Source of the DNA: an uncultured Oscillospiraceae bacterium
GTDB lineage: Bacteria > Bacillota > Clostridia > Oscillospirales > Ruminococcaceae
DNA: 64,000 bases
Direction: 5' to 3'
Assembly: GCA_964607135.1 (NCBI GenBank)
Contig: CAZSIV010000002.1
Location: 45,347-109,346, forward strand
Below are positions 21,676-21,925 of the stretch, piece by piece. Position 1 is the first letter of the stretch, and each line of letters starts with the position of its first letter. The notes under the pieces are model-generated. The model saw only the letters and a program-made list of their open reading frames with translations. It was not told where the DNA came from and ran no database searches. The position numbers and the translations under genes are program-made.

Positions 21676-21925
21676 TATAATAACCTCACGGCATGAGCCG
21701 AAGCCTTGCAGTGCAAGCCTTCGGAGACTTAAGAGAACATTGTTCCATGCAAAACCGTGGCTATGCACGGTTTTGTTGTAGGCGCTTCGCGCAATCATGG
21801 TATAATAACCTCACGACATGAGCCGAAGCCTTGCGGTGCAAGCCTTCGGAGACTTAAGAGAACATTGTTCCATGCAAAACCGCGGCTGTGCACGGTTTTG
21901 TTGCAGGCGCTTCGCGTAATCATGG
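21676..21925 (+). repeat. Two tandem 125-bp units, each an extended -10 promoter + palindromic hairpin + terminator-like hairpin (candidate small RNAs)
   Basis: Units 21676-21800 and 21801-21925 differ at only a few positions. Each starts with TGnTATAAT. Each contains a CCGAAGCCTTGCA-G-TGCAAGCCTTCGG palindrome and CAAAACCGTG-loop-CACGGTTTTG followed by TTGT. A third TGgTATAAT at 21923-21931 precedes fic. Confidence 0.6.

Follow-up and report, generated by a model that had tools for sequence, protein, structure and literature searches.

A dispersed, box-bounded intergenic repeat of gut Oscillospiraceae as the probable source of the tandem units upstream of a fic gene

Introduction

Type III toxin-antitoxin systems (ToxIN, CptIN, TenpIN) combine an endoribonuclease with a repeat array, of 36 nt repeats in ToxI, in which a single promoter precedes the array and a single terminator lies between the array and the toxin gene (PMC3401426). 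Fic proteins have been divided into classes, among which class II carries its own N-terminal inhibitory helix (PMC3667792). In the present work, a stretch of 64,000 nucleotides from an uncultured Oscillospiraceae bacterium (assembly GCA_964607135.1, contig CAZSIV010000002.1, positions 45,347 to 109,346; hereafter the window) was analysed, in which two tandem units of 125 bp lie directly upstream of a fic gene. An earlier note on this DNA had proposed that these units give rise to small RNAs serving as a repeat-RNA antitoxin of the Fic protein, or that they form a read-through attenuator.

In Listeria, LhrC1-4 are tandem small RNA (sRNA) genes with a promoter and a terminator each, which form a single-locus family whose transcripts and targets have been demonstrated. 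The Correia elements (CREE) of Neisseria have a terminator-like structure, are bounded by 26-bp terminal inverted repeats with duplication of a TA target, and insert in either orientation. The BOX elements of Streptococcus pneumoniae and the REP/BIME/REPIN sequences are modular, with exchangeable or repeated internal modules, form hairpins and are present in dozens of copies, sometimes in tandem; BOX and REP units have no conserved promoter box at each boundary and no bias towards the 5' side of genes, and REPs, of 20-40 nt, are tied to RAYT transposases. REPINs are among the intergenic repeats cited in the work on putative mobile promoters (Matus-Garcia, Nijveen & van Passel 2012; PMC3575422).

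The results presented here indicate that the units upstream of fic probably belong to a modular repeat family that is dispersed between the genes of gut Oscillospiraceae, namely Ruthenibacterium lactatiformans and its relatives, and of which one copy landed in the native fic promoter of a conjugative element and was duplicated there.

Results

Anatomy of the two units upstream of fic

Tandem Repeats Finder called one array, at 21676-21933 (period 125, 2.1 copies, 95% matches), and the region 21673-21931 consists of two head-to-tail 125-bp units and the beginning of a third. The two units (21673-21797 and 21798-21922) differ at 7 of 125 positions (21675, 21691, 21710, 21758, 21763, 21779 and 21792; 94.4% identity), in agreement with the near-identical tandem units of the earlier note, and the extended -10 boxes that it placed at the opening of each unit and before fic were located as well (TGaTATAAT at 21673-21681, TGgTATAAT at 21798-21806 and 21923-21931). 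With the form TGnTATAAT in the right orientation, 20-150 nt 5' of a start codon, these boxes qualify as putative promoters. Chance alone would produce none of the unit motifs in the window; the exact sequence TGGTATAAT has no other occurrence in it, 0.2 being expected, and everything 5' of the first box is unrelated to the repeat family described below.

Each unit contains the previously noticed 27-nt palindrome (21698-21724 and 21823-21849; chance expectation 0 in the window), which is present but imperfect, as its arms hold a central C.C mismatch. The A-to-G difference at 21710/21835, which had been taken for an A-U to G-U change that keeps the stem intact, falls within the 3-nt loop (AGT/GGT) of the predicted palindrome hairpin and provides no evidence for RNA pairing. 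Both the terminator-like hairpin and the GC clamp were found in place, the former as CAAAACCGTG/CACGGTTTTG at 21750-21775 followed by TTG. Its stem CCGTG..CACGG, loop GCTATG and tail TTTTGTTG have the canonical shape of an intrinsic terminator, with the U-tract on the plus strand only, and termination is predicted at this site. In unit 2, the T-to-C change at position 21758 of unit 1 creates a C.A mismatch in the terminator stem, and the C-to-T change at 21792 a G.U pair in the GC hairpin. The U-tract after the hairpin, the box and the downstream-gene bias are all found on the plus strand, and none of the three on the minus strand.

Other candidates for this region were tried and rejected: an RNA from the minus strand, since no U-tract stands behind the hairpin and no box is present on that strand; small open reading frames (ORFs) across the units (ATG CAA AAC..; 42-57 aa), since loop lengths vary from copy to copy by non-multiples of three and no ribosome-binding site (RBS) is present; and a LexA (Cheo) box GAACATTGTTC, since its spacing is 3 nt instead of 4 and the sequence forms no palindrome in most subfamilies.

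Dispersal and common architecture of the family

In a blastn search of a plasmid collection with a query from the window, the 3' two-thirds of the unit was found at 43 places, spread over 13 records of a single assembly that bears the label Subdoligranulum variabile TSDC17.2-1.1. A blastn query with a unit of the R. lactatiformans type found 62 places in 14 records of the same assembly, and in this second search the best place of each record had 82-100% identity across 154 nt. When one genome per species was scanned for exact occurrences of the core GAGAACATTGWWCCATGCAAAA, 33 loci were returned, about 20 of them in R. lactatiformans 585-1 and the others in metagenome-assembled genomes (MAGs) of Oscillospiraceae, and a scan for the unit junction CATGGTATAATAACCTCA returned at least 120 loci in metagenome contigs. 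The loci, cited here by numbers preceded by L, read as host sequence, n units, one extra box and host sequence again, with n bodies and n+1 boxes in every array, so that the downstream gene would keep a promoter.

Units are 115-176 nt long and arrays comprise 1-4 of them. From 5' to 3', a generic unit consists of TGGTATAAT, AACCTCA, a 5' hairpin domain, the linker GAGAACATTGwwCCATG, a second hairpin, a GC hairpin and ..CA, and closes with CATGGTATAAT after the GC hairpin; the 5' module is made of the box, AACCUCA, a hairpin and GAGAACAUUG. The linker hardly varies from one subfamily to another. Terminal inverted repeats are absent, the sequence of the 5' end (AACCTCA..) not recurring in inverted form at the 3' end (..GTCATGGTATAAT). 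In R. lactatiformans units the first hairpin is near-identical to the last (GCCGCTTGCGCGGC and GCCGCTTCGCGGC), a likeness not seen in the window subfamily. The inner hairpin type of the window is also found in L074 and L161, there with an intact outer stem GGCGT/ACrCC, and the 3' half of the window inner hairpin is nearly identical to that of L014. Copy number at the same locus, read by eye, varies between strains (2 units in L001 vs 3 in L030; 4 in L002 vs 1 in L013/L027), and an automatic search for such polymorphism among the fetched loci returned only one further case.

The nearest credible downstream ORF is co-oriented with the array in 61 and opposite in 14 of 78 non-redundant arrays, as called by a rough codon-position heuristic, and several of the 14 were miscalls on inspection, e.g. 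those of L014 (lipoprotein) and L025 (MmcQ/YjbR-like protein). Upstream ORFs are split 31/31 in orientation, and co-oriented downstream ORFs start at a median of 66 nt from the last box. This bias in position and orientation implies that the units stand at promoter sites and point as promoters do. The downstream genes are unrelated (HAD hydrolase-like, diacylglycerol-kinase-like, transposases, lipoprotein), some of them carry a leader resembling a T-box or riboswitch, and in L025/L151 and L064 the 5' domain alone constitutes the 5' untranslated region (UTR) of a gene. As with putative mobile promoters, similar sequence (at least 80% over at least 50 nt) therefore precedes unrelated genes in one genome.

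No match to the units was found with Rfam 15 in 21600-21970, even at E<=10, and at gathering score in the whole window only a tRNA and the pemK motif were matched; units of other subfamilies, from nine other loci, matched no Rfam family, and the phage collection held no match to the units. A search of open-access literature on the box, the junction, Ruthenibacterium repeats and mobile promoters found no description of the family.

Several variants of these arrangements were observed. A second unit type of 116 nt (TGGTATAATATGTCCGGTTGGTGAATGCGAGCCGCAGGCGAAGCATGAGC..CATGTTTCTTAGTGAACACGAGCGGTACGCGAAGTGCGAGCTTAGAAATA) with the same bounding box is interleaved with the main type in R. lactatiformans arrays (L001 3206-3320, L002 2808-2923, L010 5849-5965 and 6113-6228, L025 1302-1417; also L029 on the minus strand and L030 5003-5118); it has no U-tract terminator and its 3' stem ACCATGTTTCT/AGAAACATGGT pairs into the following box. 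In the metagenome contigs L102, L116 and L133 the box occurs inverted too (GGTATAATAACCTCAC..GTGAGGTTATTATAC and AATTATACCAT..ATGGTATAAT), giving palindromic arrangements that could be divergent promoters or versions of the element with inverted ends. In some cases at L068, L090, L111, L137, L139 and L147, the box and AACCTCA run directly into an RBS and a gene, with no unit, and in several of these the 5' ACCUC is able to pair with the Shine-Dalgarno sequence GGAGGU; the 5' end of the unit may thus be derived from a common promoter-plus-5'-UTR start in these bacteria.

Two loci call for caution about their origin. L013, on a contig labelled uncultured Collinsella sp., has the locus and unit seen at L002/L027 (R. 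lactatiformans / 'S. variabile'), and mis-binning of the contig is more probable than a case from Actinomycetota. Comparison of the Logan contig L043 with L014 and L037 shows the flank upstream of the L014 array joined to fic via one unit, either as a true recombinant through the repeat or as an assembly chimera; whichever its origin, this join implies that units can break or mis-join assemblies. A match to the junction at L125 5650-5900 was rejected as due to chance, the site being a CRISPR-like array with a repeat of about 36 nt ending in ..GGCATGGTATAAT and unrelated to the family.

The fic locus with zero, one and two units

Close homologues of the window Fic were compared along with their contigs. 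The homologue P0002 (93% identical; L037-L044 and L009) has one 117-bp unit before its gene, with a differing 5' hairpin (GGACTGGGCGGAAATCAAAGATTTCCGAGTCC), on an element that also bears ParA/ParB, PhdYeFM/ParE and a SpaA-type protein. The fic gene of L046 (94% identical over the part called) has no unit; the same upstream terminator hairpin, promoter and RBS are present, and the single promoter GTATGGTATAATAAC lies directly before the fic RBS. The fic gene of L045 (85% identical) is likewise without a unit. The empty site of L046 reads ..AAAAGTATGGTATAATAACAACGAC..fic (in a longer reading, ..CATCTGTAAAAGTATGGTATAATAACAACGACTAC...), and the filled site of L037 reads ..AAAAGTATGGTATAATAAC, 117 bp, AACTAC..fic, where the insert begins with CTCACGG, ends with GCAGTCATGGTATAATAAC and is followed by AACTACTAC. 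The sequence ATGGTATAATAAC thus has a single copy in the empty site and flanks the 117-bp insert left and right in the filled site. Consequently, the unit is a discrete insertion into the native fic promoter.

The two units of the window are of another subtype than that of L037. The first box, TGTGaTATAAT, is of native type and the later boxes, CATGgTATAAT, are of element type, the left junction retaining the TGA of the target and the right junction the TGG of the element, as expected from an exchange inside TATAATAA. The TRTG -16 region is a Gram-positive consensus, and it is matched by the first box.

These comparisons bear directly on the proposal that the units are a type III-like repeat-RNA antitoxin, or a dedicated regulator, of a Fic toxin. 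Tandem direct repeats and a terminator directly before a toxin-family gene are what suggested it, and the rest of the evidence makes it very improbable. Units are absent (L046, L045), single (L037-L044/L009) or double (window) before fic genes 85-94% identical to that of the window, and the same units precede dozens of unrelated genes. The earlier note had itself held that a lack of correlation between units and fic in related elements would count against a functional link, and by that measure the link, be it through an antitoxin or a fic-specific attenuator, fails. Furthermore, the Fic domain is the only Pfam match in the protein, which is not an endoribonuclease of the ToxN/AbiQ/CptN/TenpN kind; each unit has its own box and terminator-like hairpin, and a box, not a terminator, abuts fic, vs the one promoter before the array in type III systems; and the unit measures 125 nt vs 36 nt in ToxI (PMC3401426).

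The properties of the Fic protein point the same way. Its closest solved structures are the FICD/HYPE AMP-transferases, and its segment YSSNALEGNTLT aligns to YHTVAIEGNTLT of FICD, in the helix bearing the inhibitory glutamate. The translation holds SNALEG, of the inhibitory SxxxEG type, and the active site HPFIDGNGR / HPFIDGNGRVAR, so that the canonical active-site motif and an (S/T)xxxE(G/N) motif N-terminal to the FIC core occur in one chain. The wording of these motifs, HxFx(D/E)GNGRxxR and (S/T)xxxE(G/N), is reportedly that of Engel et al. 2012. The gene is, as judged by these motifs, one for an ordinary self-inhibited class II Fic on a conjugative element, and with self-inhibition of class II a separate antitoxin, protein or RNA, is not expected.

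Covariation of the hairpins and predicted transcripts

The 3' halves of 33 distinct units were aligned for covariation. In the terminator helix, 5 of 10 pairs are changed on both sides (e.g. CCGCGG/CGCGG, CCGCAG/TGCGG, ATTTCAG/GAAAT), as are 2 of 5 pairs in the GC hairpin (CG<->GC, CG<->UA). Paired cells amount to 96%, compared with 27-58% in slid registers, and the covariation score exceeds those of all 500 shuffles and all slid controls. A possible long-range pairing CCATG/CATGG is invariant and therefore uninformative.

The 5' domains are far more diverse, 90 distinct inserts falling into at least 11 sequence-unrelated clusters. When folded cluster by cluster, most representatives form 1-3 hairpins closed by CUC...GAG (z -2 to -6), the representatives L059 and L142 showing no significant folding, and closing pairs covary within types (AAGCCC/GGGCTT, AAACCC/GGGTTT, AAGTCC/GGACTT; GGCGT/ACGCC, GCCGT/ACGGC, GGACT/AGTCC). 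RNAalifold gave no consensus for a MAFFT alignment of 19 diverse 5' domains, which are not alignable by sequence. The likenesses of the window units to L074, L161 and L014 given above imply that the units are mosaics of exchangeable modules. When transcripts are predicted to begin 7 nt past the box and to extend as far as the U-tract, all have the same layout, in which 14-20 nt of open, conserved sequence separate a structured 5' domain from a terminator. A search of the window for a target site complementary to the linker found only the units themselves.

In RNA-labelled libraries, contigs extend over the units, over a tRNA and over the 5' portion of a single downstream gene, the upstream and coding flanks being uncovered. 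This coverage is weakly compatible with transcription from the arrays. RNA runs sharing the species label of the window are host-animal libraries and uninformative. The first nucleotide of the contig X34 is the very one at which transcription is predicted to start behind the last box of L025 (position 1724), an agreement that is not relied on because assembly graphs also break at repeats.

Probable mode of action and spread

The following mechanism would account for these observations. A unit sits right after the -10 hexamer of a resident promoter and ends in a new extended -10 box, and each box would be an active extended -10 promoter. In the window, the first and second boxes would each yield a terminated, structured RNA of about 90 nt, starting at ~21688 and ~21813 and ending at ~21778 and ~21903 respectively, and the third box would transcribe fic. 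Small RNAs of about 90 nt from the units may reasonably be expected on this sequence-based view. The insertion would be approximately neutral for fic, the unit behaving as a terminator-plus-promoter cassette that hitch-hikes on a promoter; spread would occur by recombination within the shared box, with core TATAATAA, and arrays would grow or shrink by unequal exchange between units.

A number of observations weigh against this account. No RNA-seq runs holding the window's own units were found, and runs holding units of the R. lactatiformans type exist as assembled contigs only; among the RNA-labelled contigs some cross promoter junctions, about 60 unit copies confound depth, and DNA carry-over is possible. 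In L055, L057 and L074 the second hairpin is without a U-tract, so termination is not family-wide. Both window units have a decayed outer stem in the 5' domain (GGCAT/AGACT), and the window copies may therefore be degenerate. The 13-nt shared junction fits a crossover within the shared box (8-13 nt) by a site-specific or single-strand enzyme, microhomology-mediated copying and slippage equally. Finally, the GC hairpin covaries though it lies 3' of the terminator U-tract; a pure promoter-to-terminator sRNA model is consequently insufficient, and read-through RNA or a DNA-level structure fits better.

The covarying GC hairpin and the subfamilies without a U-tract leave substantial weight with the idea of a selfish, DNA-level mobile element, whose hairpins would be single-stranded DNA structures for a trans-acting transposase or recombinase (IS200/IS605-PATE, REP/RAYT-like or integron attC-like), whose box would be the target or crossover core, and in which promoter likeness would reflect target choice and RNA would be a by-product. 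It overlaps with the mechanism above and does not exclude it; as a reading of its own it is possible, if somewhat unlikely. The precise 117-bp insertion with ATGGTATAATAAC on both flanks and in one copy at the empty site, the TGA and TGG junctions of the window, as from a crossover in TATAATAA, the hairpins near both ends in units with no terminal inverted repeats, the GC hairpin that covaries past the terminator, the near-identity of first and last hairpins in R. lactatiformans units and the inverted box of some relatives (L102, L116, L133) all favour it. On the other hand, no transposase or recombinase was found linked to the family, whole genomes not having been searched for a transposase, the likeness of first and last hairpins fails in the window subfamily, and co-oriented downstream genes with a strand-specific U-tract indicate a function or constraint at the level of transcription. 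As to the class of such an element, the units differ from classical miniature inverted-repeat transposable elements (MITEs) in having no terminal inverted repeats and in duplicating at the junction a promoter box of 9-13 nt in place of an arbitrary target; the lack of inverted ends, the subterminal hairpins and the insertion 3' of a fixed motif are compatible with IS200/IS605-PATE or REP/RAYT elements, which also have a cognate Y1 HUH transposase in the genome.

The same hairpins and linker could also form a generic leader or attenuator in cis, in which transcripts from the first box read through and a factor (protein or RNA) acting in trans on GAGAACAUUGwwCCAUGCAAAA, by the 5' arm of the terminator, sets the degree of read-through, about 60 operons, as well as fic on the present element, being thereby placed under one regulator. 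The most conserved stretch does abut or overlap the terminator 5' arm, contigs of RNA-labelled libraries span unit junctions, and the 5' domain serves alone as a gene's 5' UTR in L025/L151 and L064. Nevertheless, attenuation would be bypassed by the perfect extended -10 box in which every unit ends, no common function links the downstream genes, some subfamilies have no U-tract, and near-identical fic genes do without any unit, which makes this explanation quite unlikely.

A bolder version of the mechanism would be an undescribed mobile element that targets the -10 box of active promoters by a crossover in TATAATAA and regenerates the promoter 3' of itself, with near-neutral insertion and an abundant structured sRNA whose open GAGAACAUUGwwCCAUG acts in trans or as a mobilising handle. 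It is put forward as a speculation that we regard as unlikely in this full form.

The conjugative element around fic

Positions 1 to ~25.7 kb of the window, at ~46% GC, represent an integrated conjugative element within a chromosome of ~60% GC. Its genes are listed in Table 1 together with the modules of the two units. A tRNA gene (25614-25686, minus strand) lies at the break in GC content, with lepA beyond, and is probably the integration site and right end of the element; an Rfam match to the pemK RNA motif adjoins it (25345-25424, plus strand; 41 bits vs a gathering score of 34.8).

Table 1. Coordinates of the features of the fic locus and of the element in the window (promoters, hairpins and terminators as predicted)
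Feature	Position	Strand	Remarks
TraG/VirD4 coupling protein gene			element gene
Lysozyme/M23 peptidase gene			element gene
MobL relaxase gene	18805-20016		element gene
AbrB/MazE-like ORF			element gene
RepA_N initiator gene	20477-21355		element gene
Intrinsic terminator of the element	21626..21658	+	stem CAACTTCATGACA / TGTCGTGAAGTTG (13 bp), then TTTT; 5' of the fic promoter
Box 1	21671..21681	+	TGTGaTATAAT, putative native fic promoter (TRTG -16 region and -10 hexamer); equivalent in the empty site L046
Unit 1 body	21682..21797	+	AACCTCA, 5' hairpin domain, conserved linker, terminator hairpin, GC hairpin, AATCA
Unit 1 inner hairpin of 5' domain	21698..21724	+	CCGAAG.CTTGC-AGT-GCAAG.CTTCGG
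Unit 1 conserved linker	21733..21749	+	GAGAACATTGTTCCATG; family core GAGAACATTGwwCCATG; predicted mostly single-stranded
Unit 1 terminator-like hairpin	21750..21778	+	CAAAACCGTG-GCTATG-CACGGTTTTG and TTG; effective stem CCGTG/CACGG, then UUUUGUUG
Unit 1 GC hairpin	21782..21792	+	GCGCTTCGCGC, GCGC-TTC-GCGC; between terminator and next box
Box 2	21798..21806	+	TGGTATAAT after CA; putative element-borne extended -10; closes unit 1 and opens unit 2
Unit 2 body	21807..21922	+	modules as in unit 1
Unit 2 inner hairpin	21823-21849	+	
Unit 2 linker	21858-21874	+	
Unit 2 terminator hairpin	21875-21903	+	
Unit 2 GC hairpin	21907-21917	+	
Box 3	21923..21931	+	TGGTATAAT, element-borne, before the fic 5' UTR; predicted start ~21938; same arrangement in L037 and L009
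RBS and fic	21954..22708	+	AAGGAGG at 21954-21960; TTG start 21968, stop 22708, 246 aa
Tyrosine integrase gene	22999-23970		element gene

The units and fic are placed between the RepA_N gene and the tyrosine integrase gene, a position that would suit iterons or an origin for RepA_N, or attachment sites of the integrase. This is extremely improbable, as the units occur at many chromosomal loci with neither rep nor integrase and also in relatives of the element with ParA/ParB neighbours, the close relative L046 has none, and the end of the element is probably marked instead by the tRNA gene.

The motif AACTTCnnGACAGnTTGTCnnrAAGT occurs at 21627-21652 and at 22753-22778, bracketing the fic cassette, with 0 occurrences expected by chance. 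This element hairpin precedes the fic promoter in L037 and L046 as well. It was further observed in L009 at ~3470-3500 and ~4010-4040, and related elements have it before several of their promoters. In L045 a tandem series of four copies stands 5' of fic (~1260-1440). These conjugative elements seem to reuse the hairpin as a terminator or as the boundary of a cassette.

Elsewhere in the window, the leader of a Na/Pi-cotransporter-like gene (60529-60780; starting TATGGTACAATAACCGCAGAGCGGCTAT...TCATGGCCA) resembles a segment fused to the 5' module of a unit in L017 at ~4960-5068 (AATAACCGCAAATCGGCTATTATAC..TCATGGCCAGG). It has no Rfam match at gathering score and may be a conserved leader or a non-coding RNA.

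Discussion

The view that the units are copies of a dispersed repeat, landed in the fic promoter, changes what this locus stands for: there would be no Fic and repeat-RNA toxin-antitoxin pair here, and in its place appears one site of a large family, with about 60 occupied promoters to a genome, among common Oscillospiraceae of the human and mouse gut. Its copy number differs from strain to strain, its modules are shuffled, and conjugative elements have acquired it. If its boxes fire, it would rewire or insulate transcription at many loci and yield a multi-copy small RNA; if it moves by itself, it would target promoters and mend those into which it inserts. In both cases the family is relevant to genome annotation, as assemblies break or turn chimeric at the units, and to promoter and sRNA prediction in gut Clostridia.

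When set beside described systems, the locus resembles type III toxin-antitoxin loci in its tandem direct repeats and terminator hairpin directly before a toxin-family gene. Unlike the repeats of those systems, which are locus-specific, the units are dispersed genome-wide and optional before fic. With LhrC1-4 the family has in common the head-to-tail order of promoter, structured RNA and terminator, here as predicted, and an open conserved stretch between the 5' structure and the terminator; it differs in that it is present at dozens of loci per genome, always abuts a gene promoter and is known from sequence alone.

Among intergenic repeats, the units are like BOX and REP/BIME/REPIN sequences in being modular, hairpin-forming, dispersed and sometimes tandem, and unlike BOX and REP in being bounded by boxes and biased to the 5' side of co-oriented genes; they are also much longer than REPs, with no RAYT-like enzyme linked to them. 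As in the case of Correia elements, they are short dispersed intergenic repeats with promoters and an effect on the transcription of neighbours (PMC3575422), both being here predicted ones. Unlike Correia elements, they lack inverted ends, for the most part share the orientation of the gene behind them and are arrayed head to tail.

The resemblance to putative mobile promoters lies in highly similar non-coding sequence before unrelated genes, shared between taxa and mostly without an Rfam match (PMC3575422). These promoters form a purely operational class (at least 80% identity over at least 50 nt, at -150..-50; PMC3575422), and in contrast the present family has a defined modular anatomy. Beyond that class, it also has tandem arrays with n+1 boxes, covarying hairpins and a precise insertion at the -10 box. 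Taken together, the family would work like some ERIC, BOX and REPIN copies and like Correia elements, is a member of none of these groups, and is apparently a hitherto undescribed promoter-carrying intergenic repeat.

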